This document shows, in pieces, positions 40,600-63,650 of a DNA stretch of 64,000 nucleotides. Below the pieces are notes generated by a model, which saw only the letters and a program-made list of their open reading frames with translations, made no database searches and had not been told where the DNA came from. This stretch comes from Chloroflexota bacterium. GTDB lineage: Bacteria > Chloroflexota > UBA5177. The position numbers and the translations under genes are program-made. The DNA is taken from positions 911 to 64,910 of the forward strand of contig JAICWV010000001.1 of assembly GCA_025966365.1 (NCBI GenBank). Direction: 5' to 3'. Each line of letters starts with the position of its first letter. Position 1 is the first letter of the stretch.

Positions 40600-40606
40600 T
40601 TCGCCG

Positions 40607-42684: not shown

Positions 42685-42803
42685 CAAGGGAAGCAGGGTG
42701 TGGCCGCCGGATCGTGGGCCGCGCTATGCTCTACCCATACCATCGCACATGTGAATGCGTGGCCAACAGCACCGTGACCACGCGGCGCTAGAAAGACGTT
42801 GCC

Positions 42804-49431: not shown

Positions 49432-49445
49432 GACATGGGAGTGAT

Positions 49446-50573
49446 GTGCGGGCGCTTCTAGCGGCTCTGTGCTTTGCGAGCGTGCTGATGCTCGGCGCCT
49501 CCGGCGGCAGCTCATGGCCGATGTCGAGTCACGATCCCGAGGCAACCAACTTCAACAGCGGCGAAACCTCCCTCACCCCCGGCAACCTTCGGCATCTGCA
49601 TCCGGTGTGGAAGCAGACCGGTCACCTCTCCGGGTTCGTTGTCGCGAGCGGTCGTGTATACGCCGCGTTTCCGCAAGGGATTCTGGTACTTCAGCCACGG
49701 ACAGGGAAACGGCTCATGCTGGTAACGCTCAGATCTCTTCACCTGACATCGGCGCTGCTGGCCGTGAACCTTGCCTACTCGAGAGGCGTGCTCGTGGTCG
49801 CGACGCACGACGCCATCATTGCCATTCAGGCACACTCCGGCCGGTTCCTCTGGTCATTTCCGGTGAGCTTTACGACGGGGGTGCTGGTGCAAGGCACAAC
49901 GGTGTTCACGGGAAGCTACTGCTTCAATGGCTGTCCCACGCGCGCCCTTGATCTACGCACCGGCAAGATCCTCTGGGAGAATGCGACGGGGGGACTGCTG
50001 CAGGCAATTGTTGGCGGGCGAGTATATGAGGGGCTTCTCTGGCACGGCTCGTGTCAGAACCGTGTCTTGAGCGCTGACAGCGGTGCTCTGATTACGATCC
50101 TCCCCTCTTGTACGCAGCCGATTGGCGCCGGCAACCACCTGTACGCAGAGGTCTTTCCCGGCGATGCTCACCGGCCAAACATGCTCGGCGGCCTCTCGCC
50201 CGCCGGCCGGTTGACGTGGAGTATCCCCCTTGGGAAGGCCGACGAGCACCCGCTGGCGCTGGGCTATGGCACAATCTTCGCCGCCGCCCACGGACGCCGC
50301 GACGCCCTGGTGGCCGTGAGCACGCGCGCGAAACGCGTCCTCTGGCGGCGTCCCGTGGAGGGCTCCAGTGCTCTCCTGCTGGCGAGCCACATGGTTTTCG
50401 TGGTCGACAAAGAAAGCCGAAGCGTGAAGGTGCTGACGGTGGCGAGTGGCCGAACCATCAGGACCATCCGCGTCCCCGGATCCGACAAGTCTAACCCGCT
50501 CTCTGGGACCGTCGTGGCGGACGGAGCAGTCTATGCGTGGCTCTTTAATGGGCTGGTGGCGATGAGGCCGTGA
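49446..50573 (+). CDS. secreted PQQ-like beta-propeller repeat protein
   Basis: Signal peptide. Repeated G-x-hydrophobic-Y/W-A...G-x-hydrophobic PQQ/BamB-like blades (RVYAA, FLWSF, KILWE, RVLWRR). Confidence 0.6.
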   Translation: MRALLAALCFASVLMLGASGGSSWPMSSHDPEATNFNSGETSLTPGNLRHLHPVWKQTGHLSGFVVASGRVYAAFPQGILVLQPRTGKRLMLVTLRSLHLTSALLAVNLAYSRGVLVVATHDAIIAIQAHSGRFLWSFPVSFTTGVLVQGTTVFTGSYCFNGCPTRALDLRTGKILWENATGGLLQAIVGGRVYEGLLWHGSCQNRVLSADSGALITILPSCTQPIGAGNHLYAEVFPGDAHRPNMLGGLSPAGRLTWSIPLGKADEHPLALGYGTIFAAAHGRRDALVAVSTRAKRVLWRRPVEGSSALLLASHMVFVVDKESRSVKVLTVASGRTIRTIRVPGSDKSNPLSGTVVADGAVYAWLFNGLVAMRP

Positions 50574-50587
50574 AGGCGGCTGTCTCC

Positions 50588-52333
50588 TTACTTGAAGTGG
50601 AAGTTGGCCAGATGCTGGGTGGTGTCCGCCAGGGTGACGGTGAGGACCCGGCAGGTCCCCTTCCAGCTCGAATCGGTCTTCCAGGCGTACGTGTATTGAT
50701 CAGCCGTGGCGTCGTAGCTCAAGCTGCTGTTTCCGGCCGTCACCGTCTGATCGATTTGCGATGACGTGGAGGACAGAGATCCGCAATCGACCTGTTGCGA
50801 CGCCGGAGAGCCGGCCGGGAAGATGCTCAGCCCCTGGTTCCCGGTCAGGCTGAACTTCACCGGGACGGTGCTGCCCGCCTTTGCCGTGTTGACAACCGTG
50901 GGATTATCTACCGGCTGGAAGAAGCCCTTGAAGTTGTAGATCACGGTGTAGGTGCACGCCATGGACGTGCCGGTGTTGCCGGCAACATCCGTGGGGGCCG
51001 GCGCGGTGACGGTGTGCGGCCCCACCGTGGAGGTATCGAGCGGGATTGAGCCGGTTGCCTGGGTCGCCACGCCGGAGCCATTGGAGTTGTCGGTGGCGGT
51101 CCATGTCGCCGCGGGCGGCGAGGACCCAAGGATCACCGTCGAGGGGCAGGTACCCGCATCAAAGGCCACGGTGGGAGCGGTGCTGTCGATTTTGAACGTC
51201 AGCGTGTGCGTCGACTCCACGTCCGGAGTCGGAGACGCAGAATCCTCCGAGTGAAATTGCAGCGTGTGTGTTCCATCGCCCTGGACGGTCAGAGAGTTCC
51301 CTGCCTGCGACGAACCCCCGTCAACAGAGTAGTAGGTCGTGACGTTACCACCCAGGTAGTACACCTTGTGCGGCGCCAGGCTGACGGAAACATCCTCCCG
51401 ATACCAGCCGTTTTGATCCGGAGGCAGATAGGAGGCGGTGGTCTGCGGCGGAGCCTGATCGACCACGCAATCCTGGACCAGGCTCGTGCTGGGATCAGGC
51501 TGCACATCGAACGACGGGGTGTTGTTGGGGTTATTGGGATCGACACCTGAGCCGGTCGGCTCCTGGTCAGTTTGCAGGACATCATCGAAGCTGGAGCCAT
51601 CGGTGTTCGCTGTGAAGTCCCCATCTGCGCCCGTGCCGAAGGGGGGCGCGGCTCCATTTTCGCCATCGTCGGTGGCTACCCACCCGCCAATACGGCCGGC
51701 ATCGTCGCCATTTGAATCGGGGAAGGCAGCGGGCCCTCCTGTCCTATCGTCGTCCTCGTTGAGCAGCCCATTGGTTCCTGGAGCCCCATGATCGAGACGC
51801 CAGATGGAGGCAACGATCTCCTCACCCACGCTCTGCGTGGCGTAGTGAACGATCTGGGTGTCCCCGGTCCAGGTCCCGTCCGCATTGGTGGCGGGCGATC
51901 CCACGTGGGCATCCGAGGTCGAATCGGTGCTCGGGGAGGTGAAGAGCATGTGGGGGAAGCTTCCCTCGGTGATCGGGACCTGAGTCGGGGAGCTATTCGT
52001 GTTGGATGGCGTGCCGTAGTCACGAATATCCGCTATCTGCAACGAATGCGCCTCGTGGCCCGTATTGCGCAGGTCTCCGAGCTCCTGGTAGGCGACATTG
52101 ACCGCGATTCCGTCGGTGCAGATGTAGTTGCTCAGCGTGTAGAGGTTGTCCATTCCCTCGTCGCCACCGCCGAAGGCCCTGGGATCCGAGGCGAAGCTCA
52201 TGCCATTGGCCGCGGCGGCGGACGCAAGCTGGGTTCCCGGCGCCGTCCGACCGCCCACTATGCGGGCGCTACCGCTTCCAAGCACACCCGCGACCACGGT
52301 AATCACGATGAAACTCAAGATTCTCTGGTACAT
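50588..52333 (-). CDS. secreted acidic (Asp/Gly-rich, Ca-binding-like) protein with C-terminal beta-domain
   Basis: Signal peptide MYQRILSFIVITVVAGVLGSGSA. DxDxDG-like acidic repeats. The C-terminal domain has P-x-K-F-like segments (FKGFFQPV, TVPVKFSL). Strong SD AGGAGGAAGGAAGAGGAG. Confidence 0.6.
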   Translation of the reverse strand: MYQRILSFIVITVVAGVLGSGSARIVGGRTAPGTQLASAAAANGMSFASDPRAFGGGDEGMDNLYTLSNYICTDGIAVNVAYQELGDLRNTGHEAHSLQIADIRDYGTPSNTNSSPTQVPITEGSFPHMLFTSPSTDSTSDAHVGSPATNADGTWTGDTQIVHYATQSVGEEIVASIWRLDHGAPGTNGLLNEDDDRTGGPAAFPDSNGDDAGRIGGWVATDDGENGAAPPFGTGADGDFTANTDGSSFDDVLQTDQEPTGSGVDPNNPNNTPSFDVQPDPSTSLVQDCVVDQAPPQTTASYLPPDQNGWYREDVSVSLAPHKVYYLGGNVTTYYSVDGGSSQAGNSLTVQGDGTHTLQFHSEDSASPTPDVESTHTLTFKIDSTAPTVAFDAGTCPSTVILGSSPPAATWTATDNSNGSGVATQATGSIPLDTSTVGPHTVTAPAPTDVAGNTGTSMACTYTVIYNFKGFFQPVDNPTVVNTAKAGSTVPVKFSLTGNQGLSIFPAGSPASQQVDCGSLSSTSSQIDQTVTAGNSSLSYDATADQYTYAWKTDSSWKGTCRVLTVTLADTTQHLANFHFK

Positions 52334-52651: not shown

Positions 52652-54634
52652 CTACAGGTGCGGGCCCTGGAAATACAGGTGTGGCTCGAGCCAGTGGTTG
52701 GGTGAGACCACCGGCGGCGGCTGCCGGGGAAGAGGTATGGGCTGGATGGCGCGAGGCACGATGGGCGCGGTGATAGACCACTGGCGGTCGGGGTGCATGA
52801 GGCGCCAGGTTCTGGTTCCTCCCAGCGCATCGTGAAGCGTCACCACCACCGAGTCCGGGTGGCTTCCCGGCTGATGCTGAAGGACCAGGCCGTAGCGCCG
52901 TCCACCCGACCAGGAGAGGGCATTGGGCGGCACGACGTAGTGCAGCCTGATAACCGCGGTCTTGCCGCGCCGAACGATGACATAGCCGGGAAACTCGGTC
53001 TTGCCGTAGGCGGGCCCCGGCGTCCACGGGTCTGTCCACCCAGACTGATCCACAAGCTGGCCACCGGCGGGAACGAGCACGCGGAGGTAGCTGGCGTAAT
53101 CGTCCGGACCTCCCAGCATGCCGCCTCCCGGACCGACGCCCTGGCTCATCCTGTCGGCCGGCTCCGGCTCGTTCCAGAAGCGGACCGCCAGCCGCGCGTC
53201 AAGCCAGCGGTCGGGCCGGACCGTGACGTTGTAGCGAACCGACTCGTGCACGTAGGGGTTGATCTTGTTGAAGGACAGGTTGCTGTCGACCAGGTACAGA
53301 TAGTCGCCGGTCGTCCGGCTGATCTCGCCGGAGGCGCCGAGGAGGCGAACCAGCTGCTCGTCCCGGGCGTCGGAAAAATGGAGCAGGAGATCGCCTCTGG
53401 CCACGGCGTCTTGCAATTGCGAGGCGAGACGCAGCCAGCCCCGGACATCCAGCGACTGAATCCGGGCGATCAGGTGCCCGGCCACGATGGGAATGAATCG
53501 CTTGGATGCGTTTGGCGCCCAGTGGGCGTAATAGTCCGTGAGCTGAGCGAGGTTATCGGCGGTGACCTGGCGGTGGTACTCGGGGACATACATGGGGCCG
53601 GTCGCGGCAAGGACGGCGGCTGCCGCCTGCGGGGTCACATTGATGACGCCGGTGGGGTTGGCACCCAGGTCCATGCGCACGAAATAGCGCTCCACCGCAG
53701 CGGTGGTGGGAAAGTCCGGTGACCAGTTGGAGTCGCGGAGCAGCCACCAGATCTCGTTATACAGCCGTATGGGCTCGGGGGCAGGAACCCGGAGCTGCTC
53801 GCGCTTCCGGATCTCGCTATTTTCGAAATGTTGTTTCACGGAGCCGCGATTGACCGTCACCAGGCCGAAGCTTCCGATGAACCCTCCCGTCGGCCGCAAC
53901 TCCAGCGGATCCTGATAGGCGATGAAGTACGTCATGGGGGTGGTTGCGCCGAGAAGGCGGGGGGCGAGCGTCAGGCTCAGGCAGGCAGCGCGCAGCGGCG
54001 GGAGCGCGGCATCAAAGGTGTGCAGCGCCGACGCCAGTTGAGCGGGTGGGTGCGCCGGGATCGTGCGGCGGATCCGCGCTGCCGAGCTGAAGAGCGCATA
54101 TGCGTGCTGGAAGGCGCCGCGCTGCGATGCAATACCCACTGAGAGCTCTTGCAGCCGGTGCCCACCCTTCTGCGCGCGTGCCCGGTGGACCACCGGACGG
54201 AGTGCATCGAGCAGCACCAGAATCCCATCCGAGGTGGTGGAGGCGAGCCGGGTGGCCGGCGGGGCCGCCGCCAGCTGACTGCCGATAACGGGAACCCACG
54301 CCAGATGCGCCAGGATCGGGCTGAGCGGCTCCAGACGCGCGTCGGCCGCCCCGAAATCAGCCCGGGCCCGGCGTACGCGGACCGTGGCCCCGGCGAGGGC
54401 CGTATCCGCTGAGGCAGCCGTGGTCACTCCACTCAGCCCTGTCCTGGCGAGATCGATCTGTGTGACTCCGGAGGTGATGAGGCCGCGCGCGGAAAGGAGC
54501 AGGTAGGCCGAGAGAATCAGCGCCGCCAGGAGGACGAGCACGGCAACACCTGCCAGGAGCAGCGGAGTGCGCGAGTGTCTTCGGGGCGCCGGAAGGGGCC
54601 GGGCCTCCGGCTCGACCGCGGGTCGTCTCACCAC
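52652..54634 (-). CDS. membrane-anchored extracytoplasmic protein, DUF4012-like
   Basis: N-terminal Arg-rich tail plus one TM helix (LLLAGVAVLVLLAALILSAYLLL), then a large ectodomain. Motif YQDPLELRPTGGFIGSFGLV recalls DUF4012. GTG start 1 nt from the upstream sortase stop. Confidence 0.5.
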   Translation of the reverse strand: MVRRPAVEPEARPLPAPRRHSRTPLLLAGVAVLVLLAALILSAYLLLSARGLITSGVTQIDLARTGLSGVTTAASADTALAGATVRVRRARADFGAADARLEPLSPILAHLAWVPVIGSQLAAAPPATRLASTTSDGILVLLDALRPVVHRARAQKGGHRLQELSVGIASQRGAFQHAYALFSSAARIRRTIPAHPPAQLASALHTFDAALPPLRAACLSLTLAPRLLGATTPMTYFIAYQDPLELRPTGGFIGSFGLVTVNRGSVKQHFENSEIRKREQLRVPAPEPIRLYNEIWWLLRDSNWSPDFPTTAAVERYFVRMDLGANPTGVINVTPQAAAAVLAATGPMYVPEYHRQVTADNLAQLTDYYAHWAPNASKRFIPIVAGHLIARIQSLDVRGWLRLASQLQDAVARGDLLLHFSDARDEQLVRLLGASGEISRTTGDYLYLVDSNLSFNKINPYVHESVRYNVTVRPDRWLDARLAVRFWNEPEPADRMSQGVGPGGGMLGGPDDYASYLRVLVPAGGQLVDQSGWTDPWTPGPAYGKTEFPGYVIVRRGKTAVIRLHYVVPPNALSWSGGRRYGLVLQHQPGSHPDSVVVTLHDALGGTRTWRLMHPDRQWSITAPIVPRAIQPIPLPRQPPPVVSPNHWLEPHLYFQGPHL

Positions 54635-56034
54635 CAGAGCCGGATAGGCTTGCCGCCGGATGAAAGCTCTTGCACGCGATTGTTCTGGCTATCCACCACG
54701 TACACATTGCTGCGCGCGTCCACCGCAACGCCGTAGGGCTTTCGGAATTGGCCGAGACCTGATCCCGTCTTGCCCCACGTCGCGCTCAGTTTGCCCGAGG
54801 TCGAATAGCGCAGCACGCTGTCGATCTTGGGGCTCACCACGTAGACGTGACCGCTGCCATCTGCCGCCACGCCCTCTGGTGGGACGGACTCCCAGCGCTT
54901 GAGCTTGACCTTGACCTTCCACATCTTCAGGAAGTCCCCGTTGGGCGAGAGCTTCTGAATCCGTCCGTTTGCCGAGTCGGCCACGTAGATGGTCCCGTCC
55001 GGCGCGACCGCCACGCTGTCCGGGTACCAGAATTCGCCGTGGCCGTGACCGAAATGCCCCCAGGTGGCGAGCACCTGCCCGGAGGGCGACAGCTTCACAA
55101 TCTGATTGGCGCTCGAATTCGCCACGTACACGTTCCCCTGAGCGTCCACGGCAACACCGGCGGGATCATCCAGACTGACCTTGACTGATCCGGTGTCACC
55201 CCACTGCGCCAGCGGCTGACCGGTGGCAGAAAAGACCTGAACTCGATGATTGCCGTCATCCGCTACATAGACGGTGCCGTTGAGGGCCACGGCCACGCCG
55301 GAGAGTCCCCGGAACTGGCTGGTTCCCGTGCCGTAGGTACCCCACCTGTGCAGTGCACGCCGCCGCGCGTCGAACGTGGCGATCCTGTTGTTGCCGGCAT
55401 CGGCAATGAACACATCTCCCTTGCGGTTGACCGCGACGCCGAGCGGTGTCGTCAGCGAGGGCAGCGCGGCGCCACCGGGGAGCGTGGTGAGGGTGGCATA
55501 GACGATCTGCCGGTGGTCGTATCCGGTCCCGTCGCGGTGGAACACGCCCGCGCAGGTGATCAGGAAGAGGCCGCGCTCCTTGGTGGCGGCATCCATAAAG
55601 CCAGTCGGCATTCCGCTGTCGGAGTACTCGCGATTCCACCGCACCTTGAATGTCAGGCTCTGACCGTCAGCGTATTGCACGGTAATTCCGTCACCCCGCA
55701 CCAGGTCCTTCAAGTGCCAGAACACGGCGGGACAGCAGTATGAGTCGAGGTGGCCGTAGATCTGGGCGCGCCCCATATCGCCCGGGCGCGGTCCCTGCGA
55801 GTACCAGGCGACATCTCCCCATTTGTACGGCGCCTCGGTATCGGTTGGATGCGTCATGGAGACTGACTCGACGGCCGTGCGGATGCCGAGTCTGGGAATG
55901 CTCACCACCCTGGGCCAGCCGGGCGGCACGATTTGCATCCGCGTGGCGATAGGGGTTGCCGCGCGTAACGTTGAGGCCGGCGTGACGATCGGAAACAGGA
56001 TCAGTCCGATCATGACGATCAGCGCGCGGTTCAT
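54628..56034 (-). CDS. sortase (class E/F-like) fused to six NHL beta-propeller repeats
   Basis: Signal anchor MNRALIVMIGLILFPIV. Sortase catalytic pattern (IYGHLDS...GDGITV...LFLITCAG...R). Six NHL repeats (GVAVDAQGNVYVAD, PDSVAVAPDGTIYVAD...). Confidence 0.7.
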   Translation of the reverse strand: MNRALIVMIGLILFPIVTPASTLRAATPIATRMQIVPPGWPRVVSIPRLGIRTAVESVSMTHPTDTEAPYKWGDVAWYSQGPRPGDMGRAQIYGHLDSYCCPAVFWHLKDLVRGDGITVQYADGQSLTFKVRWNREYSDSGMPTGFMDAATKERGLFLITCAGVFHRDGTGYDHRQIVYATLTTLPGGAALPSLTTPLGVAVNRKGDVFIADAGNNRIATFDARRRALHRWGTYGTGTSQFRGLSGVAVALNGTVYVADDGNHRVQVFSATGQPLAQWGDTGSVKVSLDDPAGVAVDAQGNVYVANSSANQIVKLSPSGQVLATWGHFGHGHGEFWYPDSVAVAPDGTIYVADSANGRIQKLSPNGDFLKMWKVKVKLKRWESVPPEGVAADGSGHVYVVSPKIDSVLRYSTSGKLSATWGKTGSGLGQFRKPYGVAVDARSNVYVVDSQNNRVQELSSGGKPIRLWW

Positions 56035-56177
56035 TCCGTTCTTGCCAGTGGGAGAATGCACAACGCCAATAGTACGCCGCCTGGACGGCGGACGCGAACC
56101 GAGGGCCCTCTTCCCGCGGCTGTCCCGGCGTGTTACTGCTGATGCGGGGGTAATTGACGGAATTTCCATTCAGACTC

Positions 56178-56206
56178 TTTACGATGCACGAGAACCATGA
56201 TATAGT
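56178..56206 (+). promoter_or_regulatory. sigma-70-like promoter candidate (TTTACG-17-TATAGT) upstream of the PqqD-fusion gene
   Basis: AT-rich island in a GC-rich genome. 17-nt spacer. Lies ~105 nt upstream of the ATG at 56312. Confidence 0.4.
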
Positions 56207-56311: not shown

Positions 56312-56923
56312 ATGGACGGGCGAGCAGAAGATCTAGCACCCTTGGCGCGGTCCAAAGGGCTCGTTGTTCGCGAGCTCGACGGTGAGATTCTCATCTTTGA
56401 CCGCGAGAGTGATGCAGCGCACTGTTTGAATGATGTGGCAGCGGGCGTCTGGAAACGTTGCGATGGCTATACCACCATTGCCGAGATGGTGGACGATCTA
56501 TCGAGCACCTCGGGAACTCGGGTTGACGAGTACGTGATTTACAAAGCGCTTGCCGACCTGAGCAAGAAGGATCTCTTGCTCGAGGAGGTGAAGTCGCCAC
56601 GATCACGCAAGGAGATGTCGCGGCGCGACATGATGGTGAAGTCCGCGGCCGCCGCAGTCATCATGATCCCGGTGATCAAGTCGCTGTCGTCACCCAGTGG
56701 CGCTTACGCAGCAGGTGTATGCACCGGCTGCGTCGCGCACAATCAGCCCTGTTCCAGCACGCAACCGTGCTGCGGCGCCGGCGTTAATTGCAAACTCTCC
56801 GGCTGCTGCTATCTCGGGACTGCCTGTTCCGGGACCGGCACCTGCGGTGTCTGCAGCGGATGTGAGTGCCAGCCCAATAGCCACACCGGCTGCGGTCAGC
56901 CGTGCGCGGAGACCGGCTGCTAA
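56312..56923 (+). CDS. PqqD-like (RRE) domain fused in frame to a twin-arginine-like signal/TM segment and a 16-Cys C-terminal domain
   Basis: GGGAGGG 4 nt upstream of ATG 56312. PqqD pattern LVVRELDGEILIFDRESDAAHCLNDVAAGVWKRCDGYTTIAEMVDDL. Then MSRRDMMVKSAAAAVIMIPVIKSLSSPSGAYAAG. Then VCTGCVAHNQPCSSTQPCCGAG...CAETGC. Confidence 0.6.
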   Translation: MDGRAEDLAPLARSKGLVVRELDGEILIFDRESDAAHCLNDVAAGVWKRCDGYTTIAEMVDDLSSTSGTRVDEYVIYKALADLSKKDLLLEEVKSPRSRKEMSRRDMMVKSAAAAVIMIPVIKSLSSPSGAYAAGVCTGCVAHNQPCSSTQPCCGAGVNCKLSGCCYLGTACSGTGTCGVCSGCECQPNSHTGCGQPCAETGC

Positions 56924-57069: not shown

Positions 57070-57098
57070 TTGATTTGAGCCGGAACTCCGCGTATTAT
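57070..57098 (+). promoter_or_regulatory. sigma-70-like promoter candidate (TTGATT-17-TATTAT) upstream of the MauE-thioredoxin gene
   Basis: Near-consensus hexamers with a 17-nt spacer, ~50 nt upstream of the ATG at 57151. Confidence 0.4.
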
Positions 57099-57150
57099 CA
57101 GTACCAACCTGCCGTGGGGCAGTTCATTTGACCCGTTGGGAGAGTCCTTG

Positions 57151-58698
57151 ATGCCTGTACTTGTCCTCATTGTCCGCCTGTTGCTGGCGGGCGTGTTTGT
57201 GTTGTCCGCGACCACAAAGCTTTTTGATCGCCTGGGCACACGGCAAGCTGTTGCGGACTTTGGTGTGCCGGAAGCGCTCGTGGAGGGCGTTGCGTTCGCG
57301 CTGCCGGTGGCCGAGCTGCTCGTCGCGGTGCTTCTCATCCCCGGCTCGATCGCCTGGGTCGGCGGGATCGGGGCGGCAATCATCCTGGTGGCTTTCTGCG
57401 TCGCCATCTCAGTCAATCTCGTGCGCGGCAATATCGTGGATTGCCACTGCTTCGGGCAGGTCCATTCAGAGCCCATCAGCACGCGGGTACTGGTTCGCAA
57501 CGCGGTCCTCATCGTGGCAGCTGCATTCGTCGCGATAGCGGGTCGTCCCAATCGAGACCCCAGCGCCTTTCAATCACTGGGATTGACGTCCAGCTTCCGG
57601 TGGGAGGCCGCGGGCATGGGTCTGCTGATGCTCGCGCTGCTCGGAACACTCACCTGGCTCGTGCTCCGCATGAGCGCTGACAACAAGCAATTATTTATCA
57701 GGATGAAGCTGCTCGAGGCCGACATTCGGAGCGGAGGCGTTACTGCCCGTGCCGGCGACGAGGAGGACGCCGTTGAGGACGAAGATCCGAACGTGGGGAA
57801 GCCCGCTTCGTGGCTGGAGCTGCCGAACCTGACGGGCCAGAAAATAACTCTGGCGGATCTCGCGGCACGCGGGAAGCCGATTCTGATGGTCTTTGTCCAT
57901 CCCTCCTGCGCCACGTGCTCGGTGGTGCTGCCCATGGTCGCCCGCTGGCAGCAGGAGTACTCATCCCGATTGACGATTTCGATCATCAGCGGCGGCAAGC
58001 TCCGGGCGAATGTCGAGAAAGCGGAGGAGTACGGCCTTCAGGAAGTCCTGGTGCAGAAACGGCACGAGATAGAGCAGGCATACTCGATTCCCAGAGTACC
58101 GAGCGCAGTCATGGTCTTGCCGGATGGAAGGATTGGAAGTCCCGTCGCGACCGGGCCCGACGACATCCGCGCCCTGTTTGACATCGTGCTGGACCTCGTC
58201 CACGAGCAGATGACCGGTGCTCCCACGCCGCACGTCCATGACAATCCCAATGGCCATAGCCAGGTGGCATGGCCCGATATCAGCATCCCGGCCCCAACGG
58301 TCAGGCTTCCGGACGCAACCGGCCGAATCGTCGACCTGAAGGAGTTCCGAGGTCAGCGGGTTATGCTGCTCTTCTGGGGAACCAACTGCTACCACTGCGA
58401 CCAGATGCATCTCGATATCAAGGAGTGGGAGGCGGATCCGCCGGAGGGGGCCCCAACCCTTGTCATGGTCGCCGTCGGTCCCGAGGAGGAGGTGCGTGCC
58501 TCGGCCAGGGAGTACAGGTCCACCATGCTCGTGGATCCCGAGTTTGAGGTTGGACCCACCTTCAACATCAGTGGCGCCCCCCTCGCAGCGCTGATCGACG
58601 AGGATGGAACATATGTCACGCGTATCGCGGGCGCATACGACATCCTCGGAGTGCTCCGGAACGAGATTCCATGGCCGTCCGCCCTCACCCGGAGCTGA
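57151..58698 (+). CDS. MauE/DoxX-family membrane domain fused to two thioredoxin-like (TlpA/MauD-like) domains
   Basis: Four TM helices with a CHCFG motif (MauE-like). Two thioredoxin-fold segments with CxxC (HPSCATCS; GTNCYHCDQ). GGGAGAG 8 nt upstream of the ATG. Confidence 0.75.
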   Translation: MPVLVLIVRLLLAGVFVLSATTKLFDRLGTRQAVADFGVPEALVEGVAFALPVAELLVAVLLIPGSIAWVGGIGAAIILVAFCVAISVNLVRGNIVDCHCFGQVHSEPISTRVLVRNAVLIVAAAFVAIAGRPNRDPSAFQSLGLTSSFRWEAAGMGLLMLALLGTLTWLVLRMSADNKQLFIRMKLLEADIRSGGVTARAGDEEDAVEDEDPNVGKPASWLELPNLTGQKITLADLAARGKPILMVFVHPSCATCSVVLPMVARWQQEYSSRLTISIISGGKLRANVEKAEEYGLQEVLVQKRHEIEQAYSIPRVPSAVMVLPDGRIGSPVATGPDDIRALFDIVLDLVHEQMTGAPTPHVHDNPNGHSQVAWPDISIPAPTVRLPDATGRIVDLKEFRGQRVMLLFWGTNCYHCDQMHLDIKEWEADPPEGAPTLVMVAVGPEEEVRASAREYRSTMLVDPEFEVGPTFNISGAPLAALIDEDGTYVTRIAGAYDILGVLRNEIPWPSALTRS

Positions 58699-59585
58699 AT
58701 CCATTCCACGCTGATCGGCTGGTTGTGCTCCGGGGTGAGGATCTCCCCCGGCTGAGGTACCCGGTGGCCGGCTTGCGTGAGCTCGATGGGCGGGCCTGGG
58801 GTGCCGGGATAGCAGTCAGCGCCTACGGCGTTCGTCTCGGCGTGCGAGCAGAGCATTCCTCTGTGCTGCTTGGCCTTGGTGATGTTCTCCCGCCGGGATG
58901 GCGCAGCGTGACCGGACCGTCACCGCGAGTCGATCGCCTGTACTCTCTGGTCTTTCCGCAGGATGGTCCGCCGCTCGTGTACGACAACGCCACGTCGTGG
59001 ATCGGGCTCAGCTCCTTCCCGTGGCCTGATGTTCTGGAGCAACTGACGACGTCCCGCGTGGTGCGTCTGGCCACCCGGTACGTCTTCGTGCATTCCGGCG
59101 TCGTGGCATGGCAGGACCGAGCCATCGTGATTCCCGGCGACAGCCGGTCCGGAAAGACCACACTGGTGGCCGCGCTGATTCGGGCCGGCGCAACGTACTA
59201 TTCGGATGACTTCGCCGTCATCGATTCGTCGGGGCTGGTTCGCCCATATGCGCGGCCACTGAAAATACGACGCTCGAGGTTCGGAGAGTTTGACAGGCAC
59301 CGGGTGGAAGAACTGGGTGGCCGGCGGGGGATCAATCCGATTCCCATGGGCGCGGTGGTACTGGCGCCCTATGAAGAAGGAGCCGGCTGGCAGCCGCACA
59401 CGCTCTCGCGGACCGAAGGGCTCGCGTTGCTCATGATGAACAGCATGCAAAAGCGACGGCGGCCCGAGTGGGTGCTGGACGCCCTGACGAGAGCTGCGTC
59501 TCATGCCGTAATGATTGGCAGCAGTCGGGGCGACGCCGACGAAACGGCGCGGCGCATTCTCGAGACCGCCTCCACCCTCACGTGA
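58671..59585 (+). CDS. HPr-kinase-related serine kinase (HprK C-terminal-domain homologue)
   Basis: P-loop IPGDSRSGKTTLVAALIRAG, comparable to the HprK GxSGxGKS. ~300 aa. 28-nt overlap with the upstream gene. Confidence 0.65.
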   Translation: MAVRPHPELNPFHADRLVVLRGEDLPRLRYPVAGLRELDGRAWGAGIAVSAYGVRLGVRAEHSSVLLGLGDVLPPGWRSVTGPSPRVDRLYSLVFPQDGPPLVYDNATSWIGLSSFPWPDVLEQLTTSRVVRLATRYVFVHSGVVAWQDRAIVIPGDSRSGKTTLVAALIRAGATYYSDDFAVIDSSGLVRPYARPLKIRRSRFGEFDRHRVEELGGRRGINPIPMGAVVLAPYEEGAGWQPHTLSRTEGLALLMMNSMQKRRRPEWVLDALTRAASHAVMIGSSRGDADETARRILETASTLT

Positions 59586-60532
59586 GCCGTTCTTTCAGCG
59601 CAGCGGCTCACAACCTCCGGGTGTGGGGCCACGCCCTCCCCATACTCGAGAAGCTGTCCGAGGCGGACATTCCGGTGGTCATTCTCAAGGGTCTTCCTCA
59701 AATCGAGGATCTGTATGGCGACCCGGGGACACGAATGACCTCGGATGTCGACATGCTCGTTCCGTCCCGGCACGCACGATCCACGCTCGCGCTTCTTGCC
59801 GACGCAGGATGGCAGCCGGGAAGCGCGTCCACGCTGCGCTGGCTCACCTCATCCCAGGGGGCCGAAGCCGCATCGTCGCGTCCATGGCACATGCATCCGC
59901 CTCCGAACCTGACCGGCTGCCTCATCGATCTGCATTTCGATCGCATGACCCGGAGCCCGAAGCCGACTCTTGACCCGAGCATCTGGGAGCGAGCCGTGCG
60001 GATGTCACGTGACGGTGCCGATTTCCTGGTCCTCGGTCGGGAGGATCAACTGCTTTTTCTGTGCTACCACTTCGTGACCGACCACCTTCCCTGGCACAAG
60101 CTTCGAGATATCGAGGTGCTCCTGGGCCGCTCGACAGAGCTGGATTGGGACTACATTGCCCGGCGCGCTCGCCTCTCCGGTGTCACCATTGCCGTCTACC
60201 TTGCGTGCCGGCTCGCGGCGCGCGATGCAACGGATCCAGTCCCGGACAACTGGCGGGGTGTCGCTCCGGTGGACCGTCTCCGCGCCTCGGTCCTGGCCGC
60301 CATGTTGGATCGCCGCCCCGGGCTTGCCCAGTCGCGTTACTGGGCGCTCGTGTGGCTGCTCGCGCATGATCGTCCCTGGGACATGCGGACGGTGTGGCGC
60401 CACATCTTCTTCCCTGACCGGGTTACCATCGCGGCTGAATATCTTGGCCGCTGGCCATCGCGGGCCGAGTATCTCGCCGAACTGGGGCGCATCTACCTGC
60501 GTCGTATCCGGAAAAGTTTCGGACGCGCATAG
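59582..60532 (+). CDS. nucleotidyltransferase-family protein (PF14907-like)
   Basis: GTG start overlapping the upstream stop (GTGA). Pol-beta-type motif ...KGLPQIEDLYGDPGTRMTSDVDMLV (G..D.D). Confidence 0.55.
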   Translation: MSRSFSAAAHNLRVWGHALPILEKLSEADIPVVILKGLPQIEDLYGDPGTRMTSDVDMLVPSRHARSTLALLADAGWQPGSASTLRWLTSSQGAEAASSRPWHMHPPPNLTGCLIDLHFDRMTRSPKPTLDPSIWERAVRMSRDGADFLVLGREDQLLFLCYHFVTDHLPWHKLRDIEVLLGRSTELDWDYIARRARLSGVTIAVYLACRLAARDATDPVPDNWRGVAPVDRLRASVLAAMLDRRPGLAQSRYWALVWLLAHDRPWDMRTVWRHIFFPDRVTIAAEYLGRWPSRAEYLAELGRIYLRRIRKSFGRA

Positions 60533-60656: not shown

Positions 60657-62294
60657 ATGCACCTTGGAAACCTGAATCTTTCGACCTATCTCCGCTATAC
60701 GCGTCTCTGGATTCTCTTCGCTGTCCTGCCCGCTCTGGTCGCGGGAGCCCTGGGCTATCTGAACACCAGGGCGCAGCCGAAGACGTACAACGCCTCCGCG
60801 TCTCTCTACGTGCAGCAGCCGACACAGAGCGGCATCGGCGTCAGTGGGGTGCAGGACCTGTATGCCAGCAGCCAGTTGGCTCAGACATACAGCCAGCTCG
60901 CGGTGCAGCCGACCGTCGAAGCGGCAGCCGACGTGCTGCTGGCGAAGAAGTATCCTGGATACCGGATCGAGGATCACGGCCTCCAGAGCGCCCCTGCCAG
61001 CATTCAGCAACAGACTCCTCTGATCATCCTCAGCCTGTCGGACACGGTGCCCAAGCGTGCGGCTGATGCGGTCAACGCGGCCAGCCGCGCATTCATCGGT
61101 CGCATCGATCAATTCAACCAGCTTCGCTTTGCCACCGATGACCAGGCACTGTCGGCTCAGATCGGCAAGCAGAAGGCGGCGATCAACAAGATTCTGGGCC
61201 AGATCGCAGTCTATAGAGGGCCGACAAGCGGCCTGGATGGTCTGAAGACGGCCCTCAGTGCCTACCAATCGACGTATCAGTCGCTCGTCTCGTCTCAGCA
61301 GCAACTGCGTATCGAGCGCGACATCTCGTCGAGCACCATCAACGTCTATTCCAGGGCCACACCGCCCACATCGCCAACCGGTCCTCACCCGACGCGCACA
61401 GCACTCTACTGGGCGCTGCTCGTGCTCCTGGCCGGATCGGCAGCGGTGTATGGATACGAGTATTTGAGTGACCTGCCGGCAACGCCGGAAGAGGTGAGTG
61501 AGATCGCGGGGGCTCCAGTCCTGGCGGCGATCCCGGCCGCACGCGGTCGCCGGGCGCGGCGCCGCCTCATCGAGGAAGGTCAAGCCCAGCCGCTCGACGA
61601 CGAGGGATACCGCCTGATCCGGACCAACATTCAGTTCGCCAGCATCGATCGTCCGCCACACACCTTGCTGGTCACCAGCGCGCTTCCCGGCGAGGGCAAG
61701 ACGACCACGGCATCCAACCTGGCGCTGGCATTTGCCGATGGCGGCCGATCGGTCATCCTGGTGGACGGCGATTTGCGCCGCCCCTCGATGCACCATCTGT
61801 TCGACACTCGGTCGGCCAACGGCCTGACCCAGCTTATTCTGTCGGTGCAGACAAACGGGCATCGGCCGGGTCATGAGGTATACCGCAACCTGGCCGTGAT
61901 TCCAGCCGGTCCCCTTCCGCCCAATCCTGCCGATATCCTCGGCTCCACCCGGATGGTCGAACTGGTCCGCAATCTGCGCGGGCATTCCGAGGTCGTCATC
62001 ATCGATGCTCCTCCCGTTCTGGCGGCATCAGACGCGGCCATCCTCTCCACCCTCGTGGATGGGGTGATCCTCGTGGTCGATCTGCACAAGACCAAGCGCC
62101 GGGAGATCAGGCGAGCGCGCGAGGCGATCGAGGCAGTCAACGCCAGGTTTATGGGCGTCGTCATCAACCGCTTCCAGGTGCGCGACCGCTCGTACTATTA
62201 CGAGTATTCCGAGAGCTATGGAGCGAAGAGGACACCCGGCGGCCCGCCGGACAGCAGGGATGCGAGCCCGTCGCTGCCCAGTTCCCTTCGCTAG
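60657..62294 (+). CDS. polysaccharide co-polymerase / tyrosine autokinase (Wzc/BY-kinase)
   Basis: N-terminal Wzz-like domain with two TM helices. CpsD-like ATPase with Walker A SALPGEGKTTTASNLA and DxD. C-terminal tyrosine cluster YYYEYSESYG. Confidence 0.85.
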   Translation: MHLGNLNLSTYLRYTRLWILFAVLPALVAGALGYLNTRAQPKTYNASASLYVQQPTQSGIGVSGVQDLYASSQLAQTYSQLAVQPTVEAAADVLLAKKYPGYRIEDHGLQSAPASIQQQTPLIILSLSDTVPKRAADAVNAASRAFIGRIDQFNQLRFATDDQALSAQIGKQKAAINKILGQIAVYRGPTSGLDGLKTALSAYQSTYQSLVSSQQQLRIERDISSSTINVYSRATPPTSPTGPHPTRTALYWALLVLLAGSAAVYGYEYLSDLPATPEEVSEIAGAPVLAAIPAARGRRARRRLIEEGQAQPLDDEGYRLIRTNIQFASIDRPPHTLLVTSALPGEGKTTTASNLALAFADGGRSVILVDGDLRRPSMHHLFDTRSANGLTQLILSVQTNGHRPGHEVYRNLAVIPAGPLPPNPADILGSTRMVELVRNLRGHSEVVIIDAPPVLAASDAAILSTLVDGVILVVDLHKTKRREIRRAREAIEAVNARFMGVVINRFQVRDRSYYYEYSESYGAKRTPGGPPDSRDASPSLPSSLR

Positions 62295-62537
62295 CTCCCA
62301 TGGCCCCTGATTGACCCAGTTGTCAATTTAGGGGGTGACAACTGTCTCATTCGGTGGTACAGTGGTCACGGTCAAAAGTCCCAGCAATCCGAGGACGTAA
62401 GTCCTGGCTGGTCTTTGCGTGATCCATAGGAGGTATGGAAGGGACCGGCGGGAAGGAAAGGGAAAGGCCCAGCCTGTGGTCTGGTTGGGGGGGACAGAAC
62501 GGTGGATATAGTTCGTCTGGTTGCTGCGGGTGTGGAC

Positions 62538-63650
62538 ATGCCCCTCATCGCCGCAGCACTTCTGGTAACGGTGGCCTCGTACGTCGGGGTCGCGTTGGTT
62601 CGATTCTATGCCCCGCGCGTCGGCTTTTTCGATCTGCCCAATGAGCGGAGCTCGCACGCTCGTCCAATACCTTCCGGCGGCGGTCTTGCCTTTGCCGTCA
62701 TCACCCTTGGCGCCTGGTGGTGGTTGCTCGAGTTCCATCCGAGCATTCCCCTGGTTCAGGCGGTCAGGACGCAGCACGCGCTGGCCTTTATCATTGCCGG
62801 CGCCCTCATCGCCGGAATCAGCCTGATCGACGATCTCGGTCATGTGCCGGTCGTCTTCCGACTGGCGGTCCATGCCATCGGGGCGGCGGTCTTTGTCGCG
62901 TTCTTCGCGTGGTGGTCAGCGCTGAATCTGCCACTCCTGGGCTGGGTCACCCTGGGAACCGCCGGGGTATTCATCTCGATCTTCTGGATCGTCGGCATGG
63001 TCAATGCCTACAACTTCATCGACGGTCTCGACGGAATGGCCGGTGGCCAGGCGGCCGCAGCCGGGCTTGGGTGGGTGGCTCTGGGCTTCTCAACCGGCCA
63101 CTTCGCCATCGAAGCCATGGGTGCTCTGCTTGCCGCCAGCAGTATTGGGTTCCTCTTCCACAACTGGCACCCTGCCAGGATCTTTATGGGAGACGTGGGC
63201 AGTACCTTCCTGGGATTCTGCTTTGCCATTCTGCCGATCATCGCCGCTCAATACGATCCACGATTGGCGCTGGCGGGCGTGCTTCTCGTGTGGCCCGCAC
63301 TCTTCGATACCGGCTTTACCATCGTCAATCGCCTGCGCCGCGGCGAGAACGTCTTTACCGGGCACAAAGAGTTCCTCTTTCACCGCCTGGTAGCAGCTGG
63401 ATGGAGCCATGCCGCCGCATCCACGCTCTATTTCACGCTGCCGCTGGCTGGAGCAGGCCTGGCCTTCACCTGGCAGTACGGAAGCACGTCGCTGCACGTC
63501 GCTGCGTTGTGCTCCATCGTGCTTCTCTGCGTTGGTCTCTGGGCACTCGTCCGCGACCAGGAGAAGCGACACCTGGCGCAGCTGCAGGAAGTTCCCTCGG
63601 CCGACAGCATGCGGCCGGAACCCGCCAGGAGAGTGGCCGGGCGGGTCTAG
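62538..63650 (+). CDS. UDP-HexNAc:polyprenyl-phosphate HexNAc-1-phosphate transferase (WecA/MraY family)
   Basis: About 10-11 TM helices. Conserved motifs NAYNFIDGLDG and MGDVGS. Confidence 0.85.
   Translation: MPLIAAALLVTVASYVGVALVRFYAPRVGFFDLPNERSSHARPIPSGGGLAFAVITLGAWWWLLEFHPSIPLVQAVRTQHALAFIIAGALIAGISLIDDLGHVPVVFRLAVHAIGAAVFVAFFAWWSALNLPLLGWVTLGTAGVFISIFWIVGMVNAYNFIDGLDGMAGGQAAAAGLGWVALGFSTGHFAIEAMGALLAASSIGFLFHNWHPARIFMGDVGSTFLGFCFAILPIIAAQYDPRLALAGVLLVWPALFDTGFTIVNRLRRGENVFTGHKEFLFHRLVAAGWSHAAASTLYFTLPLAGAGLAFTWQYGSTSLHVAALCSIVLLCVGLWALVRDQEKRHLAQLQEVPSADSMRPEPARRVAGRV

Follow-up and report, generated by a model that had tools for sequence, protein, structure and literature searches.

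The gene at positions 57,151 to 58,698 (+ strand) of the window, the 64,000-nucleotide stretch of Chloroflexota contig JAICWV010000001.1 analyzed here, encodes a MauE-type membrane domain fused to two thioredoxin-like (Trx) domains. It lies downstream of a gene for a Cys-rich, precursor-like protein with a twin-arginine-type (Tat) signal. We read the fusion as a membrane thiol–disulfide oxidoreductase that would serve as the dedicated folding catalyst of the precursor encoded at 56,312 to 56,923 and would act on the cytoplasmic side of the membrane, with a probability of about 0.5 for this reading as a whole.

The proposal of MauE as a third family of bacterial disulfide-forming enzymes, beside DsbB and VKOR, is very recent. 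The locus would offer a defined enzyme–substrate pair, i.e., the fused MauE–Trx–Trx protein and a 16-Cys peptide that brings its own recognition domain, and with its conserved accessory genes the pathway lends itself to tests in a heterologous host. A cytoplasmic orientation, if true, would settle at which site the six disulfides of MauA, a Tat-exported subunit, are made and explain how Tat substrates that need disulfides to fold satisfy Tat proofreading. It would also provide a natural intracellular route to disulfide-rich peptides, of practical interest for producing knotted peptides, and a natural counterpart of the engineered inverted DsbB and VKOR systems. With a periplasmic enzyme, the locus would remain the first cassette described in which a PqqD-tagged Tat precursor and a MauE oxidase are joined with an HPr-kinase/nucleotidyltransferase pair.

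The MauE–Trx–Trx Fusion

On the + strand the open reading frame can start at a TTG at 57,136 or an ATG at 57,151, and it ends at 58,698. A Shine–Dalgarno-like GGGAGAG lies about 6 nt 5′ of the ATG, and NCBI's call for the identical protein P0001 (515 aa; GCA_025929235.1) begins at the same codon. The 515-aa protein from this ATG is supported by domain profiles, homologues, and an AlphaFold2 (AF2) model.

The membrane domain (57,151–57,669) matches the Pfam MauE family PF07291 over residues 6–134 with an E-value of 8e-28 and 97.7 bits against a cut-off of 27. The original prediction gave this domain four transmembrane helices, but AF2 predicts five, at residues 5–30, 46–66, 70–97, 116–135, and 153–198. 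The active-site motif C103-H-C105, followed by F-G, sits in the loop between TM3 and TM4 (57,442–57,450) and is invariant in 30 homologues.

Thioredoxin-like domain 1 (57,772–58,215; ResA/TlpA/MauD-like) is supported by NCBIfam, AF2, and Foldseek and carries C258-A-T-C261 at 57,907–57,918. Domain 2 (58,273–58,656), with C418-Y-H-C421 at 58,387–58,398, is recognized by the Pfam AhpC-TSA, Redoxin, and Thioredoxin_2 families over aa 385–501, and the two AhpC-TSA/Redoxin/Thioredoxin-like stretches of the fusion lie at about aa 213–335 and 385–495. Both are also hit by the NCBIfam models for ResA and MauD (2.6e-19 and 2e-17, respectively, on aa 212–335), each below its equivalog cut-off, and the 63.3 bits reached with MauD TIGR02661 compare with a cut-off of 188.6. 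By sequence, then, the Trx domains are relatives of MauD, and the score rules out MauD equivalog status. Both domains are modeled with pLDDT above 90 and have a thioredoxin fold with a CxxC motif and a cis-Pro loop. Foldseek places them near ResA, TlpA, CcmG, DsbE/F, and Etrx, with a target-normalized TM-score of 0.85 for domain 1 against ResA 1st9.

All six cysteines of the fusion are invariant in an alignment of the 30 homologues (30–46% identity), as are K28, E60, F106, G107, and the cis-Pro P322; P482 of domain 2 is nearly so, and the family consensus of the domain 1 motif is CGPC. The MauE and MauD proteins of Paracoccus denitrificans both align to the fusion (E-values of 2e-11 and 4e-11). 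The protein is thus a MauE+MauD-type fusion, scoring above the MauE profile cut-off. The original prediction had proposed this union of the two functions, with CHCFG, CATC, and CYHC motifs, and had named CxxC motifs not conserved in homologues as grounds for refuting it; the profile matches, the motifs as read, and their invariance all bear it out, so no loss of CxxC motifs in homologues speaks against it.

The Upstream Precursor-Like Protein

The gene at 56,312 to 56,923 (+ strand) encodes a protein of 203 aa, supported by the open reading frame, the NCBI gene call, and 19 homologues that share its architecture of a PqqD domain, a Tat-type signal, and a Cys-rich tail. The original prediction of a Tat-signal, Cys-rich protein upstream of the fusion was correct as to the signal and the tail, but the signal lies within the protein, after a PqqD/RiPP-recognition-element domain that had gone unmentioned.

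This domain spans about aa 14–95 (56,351–56,596, + strand) and matches Pfam PF05402 with 26.7–27.1 bits against a cut-off of 23.4. Its AF2 model (pLDDT about 90) has a beta3-alpha3 topology, and the best fold matches in the PDB are the lasso leader-binding proteins TbiB1 (5v1v) and B1 (6jx3), together with PqqD (5sxy). By analogy, it is a candidate leader-binding-type domain with a putative role in delivering the core to enzymes. Swaps of the domain among precursor, oxidoreductase, and kinase, described below, bear on that role.

The twin-arginine-type signal occupies aa 102–133 (56,615–56,710, + strand; MSRRDMMVKSAAAAVIMIPVIKSLSSPSGAYA), with cleavage predicted at an A-x-A site after A133, and reads MSRRDMMVK..AAAAVIMIPVI..AYA. 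The S/T-R-R-x-h-h motif, h-region, and A-x-A site are all present, and within the 19 family members the S/T-R-R motif, h-region, and A-x-A site are kept and R104 is invariant. Profile scores are low; TIGR01409 (TAT_signal) matches aa 103–131 with 10.9 bits, below its cut-off of 16.7, and at E ≤ 1 it matches 5 of the 19 members, with 6 matched by the formate_TAT model. The tail that follows (aa 134–203; 56,711–56,920, + strand), delimited by reading the sequence, contains 16 cysteines and is a putative exported product, presumably leaving through the Tat pathway. The number of tail cysteines is even in 19 of 19 members of the PqqD-precursor family. A profile search with the tail matched no curated family, and its AF2 model is of low confidence, so no fold is claimed. 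A scan for intrinsic terminators between the precursor and fusion genes gave nothing better than shuffled sequence.

Accessory Genes and a Recurring Cassette

Two further genes follow on the + strand. The first (58,671–59,585) shares 28 nt with the 3′ end of the fusion gene and encodes a 304-aa, HPr-kinase-related P-loop protein. It matches TIGR04352 (HprK_rel_A) with an E-value of 1.3e-12 and 47.5 bits, where the cut-off is 200; its Walker A residues G156..G161-K162-T163 are invariant in nine homologues, and its family profile matches the HPr kinase 1ko7 (E 2e-4). The second (59,582–60,532; start from the NCBI gene call) overlaps the kinase-like gene by 4 nt and encodes a 316-aa nucleotidyltransferase-family protein (NTP_transf_5, PF14907; E 1.8e-35).

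Precursor, fusion, kinase-like protein, and NTP_transf_5 protein form a four-gene cassette that recurs elsewhere in shuffled order. A search across 80 related loci found it at four loci by tblastn with the window neighbors and at five, plus metagenomic loci, by profile searches (the shuffled loci are L081–83, L086–88, L090, L028, L032, and L034). The linkage persists across phyla despite the reshuffling of gene order, and the closest homologues of the fusion (P0005 and P0011, 44–46% identity) are linked to the cassette. Most members of the fusion family lie outside it.

The PqqD domain is exchanged among the cassette proteins. While it is found on the precursor in the window, it can sit at the C terminus of the MauE–Trx–Trx protein (P0056, P0076, P0098, and locus L053) or on the kinase (L053). 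Where it sits on the enzyme or kinase, the adjoining Cys-rich protein has a plain N-terminal RR signal; such plain N-terminal Tat-type versions are found at L092, L093, and L053.

Association with Cys-Rich Proteins

The fusion family is widespread, with at least 559 related loci in species-representative genomes and best homologues reaching an E-value of 1e-138. A Cys-rich, Tat-type protein is encoded within 1.5 kb of the gene in at least 18 of 80 related loci, about a quarter. In these 80 loci, genes for Cys-rich proteins with RR signals are about 30-fold denser per kilobase beside the fusion gene than farther away (216 kb of near flank contain some 20 real matches, 691 kb of far flank about 2). 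An even number of tail cysteines is found in 22 of 24 Cys-rich neighbor proteins, and their leaders, of the form FDxLTKxLA..SRR, resemble the leader of MauA. Some upstream open reading frames clustered with the fusion family as if they were extra thioredoxin paralogues; those that were printed proved to be Cys-rich RR-signal proteins.

The shuffled gene set, the PqqD swaps, the Cys-rich, Tat-type neighbors, and the even cysteine counts together make a dedicated pairing of the fusion with a Cys-rich precursor probable, and they go further than the adjacency on which the original prediction rested. Genome mining with decRiPPter independently picked out mauE/mauD clusters whose precursors have eight or more cysteines (PMC7794033).

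Not all loci conform. Fifteen homologues from Pyrinomonadaceae sit among der, tgt, yajC, and secDF and have no Cys-rich neighbor, and one precursor homologue with the PqqD–Tat–Cys architecture (P0119) has no MauE gene nearby. Both observations were weighed against the main model.

Membrane Orientation

Topology was called from the positive-inside rule with a crude hydropathy finder. Lys and Arg residues average 9.8 on the side of the CXC loop and Trx domains vs 2.5 on the opposite side, a polarity found in 106 of 107 homologues that places both the CXC loop and the segment following TM5 inside the cell. The natural fusions point in the same direction. In these, PqqD follows the second Trx domain without a membrane helix between them, and PqqD domains of this type are elsewhere joined to a P-loop kinase or lie N-terminal to a Tat signal. 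During Tat targeting, a recognition element that precedes the RR motif remains cytoplasmic.

The charge bias and the PqqD fusions suggest that the CXC loop and both Trx domains are cytoplasmic, and oxidation would therefore take place before Tat export. The original prediction expected the Trx domains outside the cell and would count a predicted cytoplasmic location as refuting it; on this evidence they are predicted to be cytoplasmic. Its broader proposal of a dedicated, extracytoplasmic disulfide role thus divides. The dedicated link is upheld by the gene set, the PqqD swaps, and the Cys-rich neighbors, but the extracytoplasmic location becomes doubtful, kept alive by the published dsbB complementation by two other MauE proteins (bioRxiv 10.64898/2026.03.05.709764).

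The same charge argument extends to the classical pair. Lys+Arg counts on the two sides of five canonical MauE proteins, which also have five hydrophobic segments, are 12:0, 12:0, 8:2, 10:0, and 9:5, and canonical MauD has no Lys or Arg before its anchor and RQxGxLxER after it. This would turn the classical MauE/MauD pair toward the cytoplasm as well. The canonical mau clusters were found via MauA; a search of plasmids for canonical MauE with the window MauE domain returned three Streptomyces matches only. A further homologue search, with only the MauE domain as query, gave for the most part fragments that share this charge polarity, and no relative of reversed polarity, and a literature search on MauE/DoxX topology or the location of MauD found nothing usable.

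Experiments on other MauE proteins count on the opposite side. Two of them restore motility and PhoA activity in Escherichia coli without dsbB (bioRxiv 10.64898/2026.03.05.709764), a rescue that needs a periplasm-facing CXC loop and so argues against the cytoplasmic orientation. The same preprint reports that TOPCONS puts the CXC loop of the tested proteins outside. The proteins tested experimentally were B8FLW7 and H1XRV2.

Proposed Mechanism and Alternatives

The model that we favor begins at the cytoplasmic face of the membrane, where the PqqD domain of the precursor would tether it to the maturation proteins; in sister systems the tether would be provided by the enzyme or the kinase instead. 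A MauE-type, quinone-linked oxidase with five helices and a C-x-C motif, fused to two MauD/ResA-like Trx domains, would be the catalyst. The Trx domains would introduce and shuffle eight disulfides in the 16-Cys tail, with electrons passing through the C-x-C loop to the membrane quinone. The HPr-kinase-like and NTP_transf_5 proteins may add or control some further modification. The folded peptide would then exit via the Tat pathway and be cut after AYA. Of all this, the identities of the domains, the invariance of the cysteines, the recurring gene set, and the domain swaps are observed, whereas the precursor as substrate, an oxidative direction of the reaction, and the cytoplasmic site are inferred.

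The chemistry is consistent with what is known of MauE. The CXC-F-G motif is essential in two MauE proteins (bioRxiv 10.64898/2026.03.05.709764), and K28, E60, and CxCFG of the fusion coincide with active-site and likely quinone-site residues identified in that preprint. Two considerations count against a cytoplasmic site of action: all of the close structural relatives of the fusion Trx domains work outside the cytoplasm, and eight disulfides would be hard to form in a reducing cytoplasm.

A more general proposal, somewhat short of even odds, is that the fusion family and classical MauE/MauD alike face the cytoplasm and represent natural quinone-linked disulfide formation on Tat-signal, Cys-rich precursors before export. 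The precursors would be recognized via an element N-terminal to the twin-arginine motif, either an FDxLTKxLA helix (at most loci) or PqqD (in the cassette).

The same dedicated partnership could operate on the outer face of the membrane, with the CHC loop and Trx domains on the periplasmic or cell-wall side, oxidizing the tail after export as a fused DsbB–DsbA(–DsbC) would. We consider this arrangement less likely than the cytoplasmic one. Small hydrophilic unfolded peptides can cross the Tat pathway, so a Tat signal need not force prior folding. The Trx domains resemble the extracytoplasmic ResA, TlpA, and CcmG, and MauE proteins from two phyla replace DsbB with an essential CXC motif that is predicted to be periplasmic (bioRxiv 10.64898/2026.03.05.709764). 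In the same preprint, the 8.2% of InterPro MauE entries that are Trx fusions are read as analogues of VKOR–Trx. However, the charge bias runs strongly against an outer-face enzyme, both in canonical MauE and MauD and in 106 of 107 homologues. Such an enzyme would also place the C-terminal PqqD domain, with no helix before it, outside the cell, yet in sister systems PqqD domains of this type are joined to a P-loop kinase that depends on ATP and precede the Tat signal. The consistent RR-type signals, with a conserved element N-terminal to the RR motif, are left unexplained on this reading.

The cytoplasmic, oxidative model must also be set against a role without oxidation, in which the Trx domains would maintain the cysteines in the reduced state, so that metal can be loaded or the kinase-like and nucleotidyltransferase proteins can make another modification, or would serve solely to isomerize or chaperone the Tat substrate until it is ready. 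The CGPC consensus of domain 1 is the classical reducing thioredoxin motif, the relatives ResA, TlpA, and CcmG are reductants, and a 16-Cys tail could bind metal; Alvarez et al., cited in the preprint, suggest that MauE may be a reductase (bioRxiv 10.64898/2026.03.05.709764). We nonetheless regard such a role as improbable, given that the quinone-linked CXC chemistry of MauE was shown to be oxidative (bioRxiv 10.64898/2026.03.05.709764), that even cysteine counts fit complete pairing, and that the annotated cassette genes include no DsbD/CcdA-like electron donor.

Least probable of all is a general housekeeping oxidoreductase serving many envelope proteins, with the Cys-rich adjacency carrying no special meaning: the family is very widespread, its gene lies between der/tgt and yajC–secDF without a Cys-rich neighbor in the 15 Pyrinomonadaceae loci, and MauE is argued to be a generalist (bioRxiv 10.64898/2026.03.05.709764), but the linkage outlasts gene-order shuffling across phyla, three kinds of PqqD fusion tie enzyme, kinase, and precursor together, and Cys-rich RR-signal genes are enriched about 30-fold per kilobase beside the gene.

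Comparison with Known Systems

The closest parallel is the methylamine dehydrogenase cluster. In mau clusters of Paracoccus, Methylobacterium, Novosphingobium, Pseudomonas (aau), and Cupriavidus, MauE and MauD are encoded side by side, next to the Tat-signal, Cys-rich MauA (10–14 Cys), a layout paralleled by the locus here; mauE, mauD, and mauA are adjacent in real mau clusters. The Lys/Arg polarity is the same, and an F-D-x-h..SRR element in MauA leaders resembles that in leaders of the Cys-rich neighbors of the fusion family. Unlike mau clusters, the window joins MauE and two MauD-like domains in one polypeptide, adds the kinase-like and nucleotidyltransferase genes, and has no MauA, MauB, or MauG. 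The putative substrate also differs from MauA in being a short peptide tail without MauA homology that carries a PqqD domain.

The DsbB-like MauE oxidases (Gonzalez et al., bioRxiv 10.64898/2026.03.05.709764) share with the fusion the CXC-F-G motif between TM3 and TM4, a conserved Lys in TM1, and a conserved Glu in TM2, and fusion to the thioredoxin superfamily is shared with 8.2% of MauE entries and with VKOR–Trx fusions. The tested proteins are described as four-helix generalists with a periplasmic CXC motif, whereas members of the fusion family combine five helices with two Trx domains and have a charge bias and fusions that point to the opposite orientation, along with a dedicated candidate substrate encoded next door.

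In candidate RiPP families from Streptomyces identified with decRiPPter (PMC7794033), mauE (and mauD) homologues that do not belong to a mau cluster adjoin a predicted precursor of eight or more cysteines, as here. These families are untested genome-mining candidates, and the paper describes neither a PqqD–Tat precursor nor a kinase/nucleotidyltransferase pair, nor does it make a topology argument.

Lasso-peptide tailoring sets and Haft's HPr-rel-A system are related through individual components. The B1 proteins of lasso systems share the fold of the precursor PqqD domain, and genes for an HPr kinase and a nucleotidyltransferase accompany PqqD in lasso clusters (PMC7533575, PMC8498205). The combination of PqqD, HPr-kinase, and NTP_transf_5 suggested a lasso-peptide cluster, which was rejected, as neither an Asn-synthase-like cyclase nor a B2 protease is found among the annotated genes at 35–64 kb of the window or at the cassette loci. 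At one cassette locus (L081) an Asn synthase with a glutamine amidotransferase domain is encoded amid polysaccharide genes. HPr-rel-A combines a PqqD chaperone, an HprK-related kinase, and a nucleotidyltransferase, components similar to those of the cassette. HprK_rel_A matches the kinase-like protein, and PqqD_rel_X (TIGR04353) weakly matches 9 of the 19 precursor family members (best E 0.001), with all NCBIfam scores far below the equivalog cut-offs. Unlike in the lasso and HPr-rel-A systems, the PqqD domain in the window is fused to the precursor itself and is followed by a Tat-type signal.

A Probable Disulfide Catalyst for a Cys-Rich Precursor

The protein encoded at 57151–58698 (+) is supported as a disulfide catalyst of the MauE/MauD type that is dedicated to the Cys-rich, Tat-type precursor encoded next to it (56312–56923, +), a sequence-based reading that draws on conserved synteny, domain fusions, and cysteine parity and that upholds the original prediction in part. 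What is new here is the PqqD–Tat–Cys architecture of the precursor, the four-gene cassette, and a mobile PqqD domain. Also new are a suggestive sharing of the leader with MauA and a predicted inward orientation of the enzyme.

The Fusion Protein and Its Relatives

The open reading frame runs on the + strand from 57136 (TTG) or 57151 (ATG) to 58698. A GGGAGAG ribosome-binding-like motif precedes the ATG, which is also the start used in the public record for an identical 515-aa protein (GCA_025929235.1, contig JAICMP010000001.1). Pfam identifies a MauE domain at residues 6–134 (E 8e-28) and two AhpC-TSA/Redoxin/Thioredoxin-like stretches at ~213–335 and ~385–495, both of which are matched by the NCBIfam ResA and MauD models with scores under the equivalog cut-offs. 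The AlphaFold2 model (alignment input of 30 homologues, mean pLDDT 85) contains two thioredoxin folds connected by disordered linkers, with ResA, TlpA, CcmG, DsbE/DsbF, and Etrx as the nearest solved structures. The proposed fusion of a MauE membrane domain to two thioredoxin-like domains is thus borne out, with the correction that the membrane domain has five long helices in the model (5–30, 46–66, 70–97, 116–135, and 153–198) instead of four. The CHCFG, CATC, and CYHC motifs noted at the outset are all found. Their cysteines (C103, C105, C258, C261, C418, and C421) are invariant in 30 homologues at 30–46% identity, as are F106, G107, K28, E60, and the cis-proline P322.

In a March 2026 preprint, the CXC motif followed by Phe-Gly is essential in MauE, a quinone site is probably lined by a Lys in TM1 and a Glu in TM2, both conserved, and a thioredoxin-superfamily domain is fused in 8.2% of InterPro MauE entries (bioRxiv 10.64898/2026.03.05.709764). 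Every residue of this set also occurs in the protein studied here, so the MauE–thioredoxin fusion is an already recognized kind of protein. The fusion studied here aligns with both canonical MauE and MauD of Paracoccus denitrificans, encoded in an actual mau cluster (E 2e-11 and 4e-11), and MauD matches each of the two thioredoxin domains. Five mau/aau clusters have the order mauB–mauE–mauD–mauA, and the fusion corresponds to such neighbors joined.

A protein search recovered 107 clusters of homologues down to E = 6e-34, and scanning one genome per species gave at least 559 loci with relatives in the Chloroflexota, Rubrobacteraceae, Acidobacteriota (Pyrinomonadaceae, Blastocatellia), and other phyla. 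Some relatives have three or four thioredoxin domains (P0002, P0004). A Streptomyces sp. NBC_01562 linear plasmid encodes a 510-aa protein annotated "MauE/DoxX family redox-associated membrane protein" (L099:6001–7533), with a DUF6193 "natural product biosynthesis" gene ~4 kb away.

The Precursor and the Four-Gene Cassette

The 203-aa precursor (56312–56923, +) has three parts. A PqqD domain at residues ~14–95, scoring above the Pfam cut-off and missed by the original prediction, is modeled with beta3-alpha3 topology (pLDDT ~90); by fold it most closely matches PqqD and two proteins that bind lasso leaders, TbiB1 and B1. Residues 102–133, MSRRDMMVKSAAAAVIMIPVIKSLSSPSGAYA, comprise a twin-arginine motif and an A-x-A site with a stretch of moderate hydrophobicity between them, and residues 134–203 hold 16 Cys; these two parts agree with the Cys-rich Tat-signal protein that had been proposed. 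The same plan is common to 19 precursor homologues, in which R104 is invariant and the tails vary from ~27 to 120 residues with 4–16 Cys. The tail Cys count is even in all 19 family members (chance ~two in a million), which makes full pairing of the cysteines probable. Because curated Tat-signal models match the family only under their cut-offs, Tat export is something we infer rather than assign.

The fusion gene is followed by genes for a 304-aa kinase-like protein (58671–59585, +) and an NTP_transf_5 nucleotidyltransferase-family protein (59582–60532, +; PF14907, E 1.8e-35). The kinase-like protein has an invariant Walker A motif and resembles HPr kinase weakly but specifically (TIGR04352, E 1.3e-12; family profile versus PDB 1ko7, E 2e-4). 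These three genes overlap, by 28 nt and then by 4 nt, whereas 227 nt separate the precursor and fusion genes. Sigma-70-like hexamer pairs lie before the precursor gene (56178–56206) and the fusion gene (57070–57098), two observed against 0.2 expected from shuffles. The same four genes, in varied order, occur in metagenomic contigs (L081–83, L086–88, L090) and Blastocatellia genomes (L028, L032, L034), and the nearest relatives of the fusion (P0005 and P0011, 44–46% identity) belong to such cassettes. If lasso-peptide tailoring is a guide, phosphorylation and further decoration of the precursor may be the work of the kinase-like and nucleotidyltransferase proteins. The cassette was also considered as a lasso cluster, which was rejected: annotation of the window from 35 to 64 kb and of the cassette loci shows neither a lasso cyclase nor a B2 protease.

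Genes for a DUF4012 protein and for a class F sortase with fused NHL repeats lie on one side of the cassette (52652–56169, −); the other side has a Wzc-like tyrosine autokinase gene and one for a WecA/MraY-family transferase (60657–63650, +). This position between DUF4012 and the Wzc-like kinase, bordering a polysaccharide locus, recurs in L081–83, a sign that the cassette may be linked to the production of envelope polysaccharide. A long run of polysaccharide genes at 35364–44528 (+) has genes for a Wzy-like polymerase, a carbamoyltransferase, and several glycosyltransferases (GT1/GT4 and GT2). The stretch 46648–52333, a short way upstream of the cassette region, encodes a STAND NTPase (NB-ARC plus TPR), a PQQ_2 beta-propeller protein, and a PxKF-domain protein. 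One PqqD–Tat–Cys homologue (P0119, in the region L084:6742–9637) lies without a MauE gene and adjoins PQQ_2 and NHL/SGL propeller proteins.

Cys-Rich Neighbors

The open reading frames adjoining the fusion gene were read in the 80 best of the at least 559 genomic loci. Many encode Cys-rich proteins of ~80 to ~880 residues with up to 124 Cys (L002, L006, L008, L011–L013, L015–L017, L019, L020, L024, L025, L042, L048, L051, L061, L065, L078, L080), none of which matched a curated family. They begin with M..(F)D(D/E)LTKALA..(S/T)RR.ALK and continue into a hydrophobic stretch; 22 of 24 have an even Cys count. By a strict pattern, 18 of the 80 loci have a Cys-rich RR-signal gene within 1.5 kb, which in most cases shares the strand and lies immediately upstream; real hits number ~20 over 216 kb of near flank versus ~2 over 691 kb of far flank. 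In MauA leaders the twin arginines are preceded by a similar element, for example FDDLFEKMSRKVAGHTSRRGFIG, a suggestive likeness at the level of the leaders. Genome mining in Streptomyces has likewise described candidate RiPP families in which mauE/mauD clusters accompany precursors of at least 8 Cys (PMC7794033).

Fifteen Pyrinomonadaceae loci have no Cys-rich neighbor beside the MauE–Trx–Trx gene (L021, L029, L035, L036, L045–L047, L050, L054, L063, L067, L070, L072–L074). The gene sits there in a fixed housekeeping neighborhood, with der upstream and tgt, yajC, and secD/secF downstream.

A Mobile PqqD Domain

In P0056, P0076, P0098, and L053, PqqD is found on the C terminus of MauE–Trx–Trx or MauE–Trx, and the sequences of the first three have no hydrophobic segment between the thioredoxin and PqqD domains. 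The Cys-rich neighbor in such loci has an ordinary N-terminal RR signal without PqqD; plain signals of this kind are exemplified by L092 (...AIDRRDIIKKGLKIGG...) and L093 (...TSRRELIKKAVKAGG...). L053 carries PqqD of a single type twice, at the C terminus of MauE–Trx–Trx and again at the N terminus of the kinase-like protein encoded directly downstream (7905–9824 and 9871–11097). PqqD is therefore mobile among precursor, oxidoreductase, and kinase, being fused to each in different loci, and this is a classical signature of proteins that act as one complex. The MauE–Trx–PqqD protein P0098 (L091:7001–8380, on a 3.5-Mb contig) has a His-rich C-terminal tail, DHGEGVDHSGHDHAGHQGHAHAH, and is encoded without a Cys-rich neighbor, upstream of genes with S1 (rpsA-like) and CoaE domains.

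Membrane Orientation

The balance tilts modestly toward a predicted cytoplasmic location for the CXC loop and thioredoxin domains of the fusion, judged by charge bias, the polarity of canonical MauE and MauD, and the location of PqqD. With a simple charge rule and a crude helix finder, mean Lys+Arg counts in a 30-sequence alignment are 3.7 in loop 1, 2.3 in the CXC loop, and 3.5 in the 22 residues after TM5, versus 0.07 in the N-tail, 0.2 in loop 2, and 1.3 in loop 4 on the opposite side. Across 107 homologues, the totals are 9.8 on the CXC/Trx side versus 2.5, with 106 of 107 biased alike. Canonical MauE from five genera has five hydrophobic segments and the same polarity, nearly all Lys/Arg being on the CXC side (12:0, 12:0, 8:2, 10:0, and 9:5). 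In canonical MauD the hydrophobic anchor is preceded by no Lys/Arg and followed by RQxGxLxER, an N-out, C-in pattern (MauE/MauD regions L094:2605–3769, L095:1085–2268, L096:1164–2311, L097:1109–2272, and L098:1076–2303). By the positive-inside rule, the active sites of both proteins are predicted to be cytoplasmic, which runs counter to the usual assumption on methylamine dehydrogenase maturation. A fused PqqD, lying directly after Trx2, must be on the thioredoxin side of the membrane; in sister systems this PqqD type occurs on an ATP-dependent P-loop protein or N-terminal to an RR signal, both cytoplasmic positions.

The original prediction placed these domains outside the cytoplasm and treated a cytoplasmic prediction for the thioredoxin domains as counting against it; charge counts and PqqD location do predict the inside. 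Extracytoplasmic action is the somewhat less probable reading, contradicted by these features yet favored by published work on other MauE proteins: the rescue of a dsbB mutant by two of them needs a periplasm-facing CXC, where TOPCONS placed it (bioRxiv 10.64898/2026.03.05.709764). Structural relatives of the thioredoxin domains are also all extracytoplasmic, and eight disulfides are hard to make in the cytoplasm. The MauE family may contain both orientations. If the inward orientation is true, the enzyme would oxidize its substrate before Tat export, which would explain both the RR-type signals and the recognition element upstream of RR.

P0099 (656 aa, from a single ENA contig of 3425 nt) joins MauE, a single thioredoxin domain, a segment resembling an RR signal (RRELLVRGAGALAATGPLL..AFA), and an extended Cys-rich region of Stig1-like type. 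Either a true fusion or read-through from one gene into its neighbor may account for it; a true fusion would place the thioredoxin and Cys-rich domains on opposite sides of the membrane.
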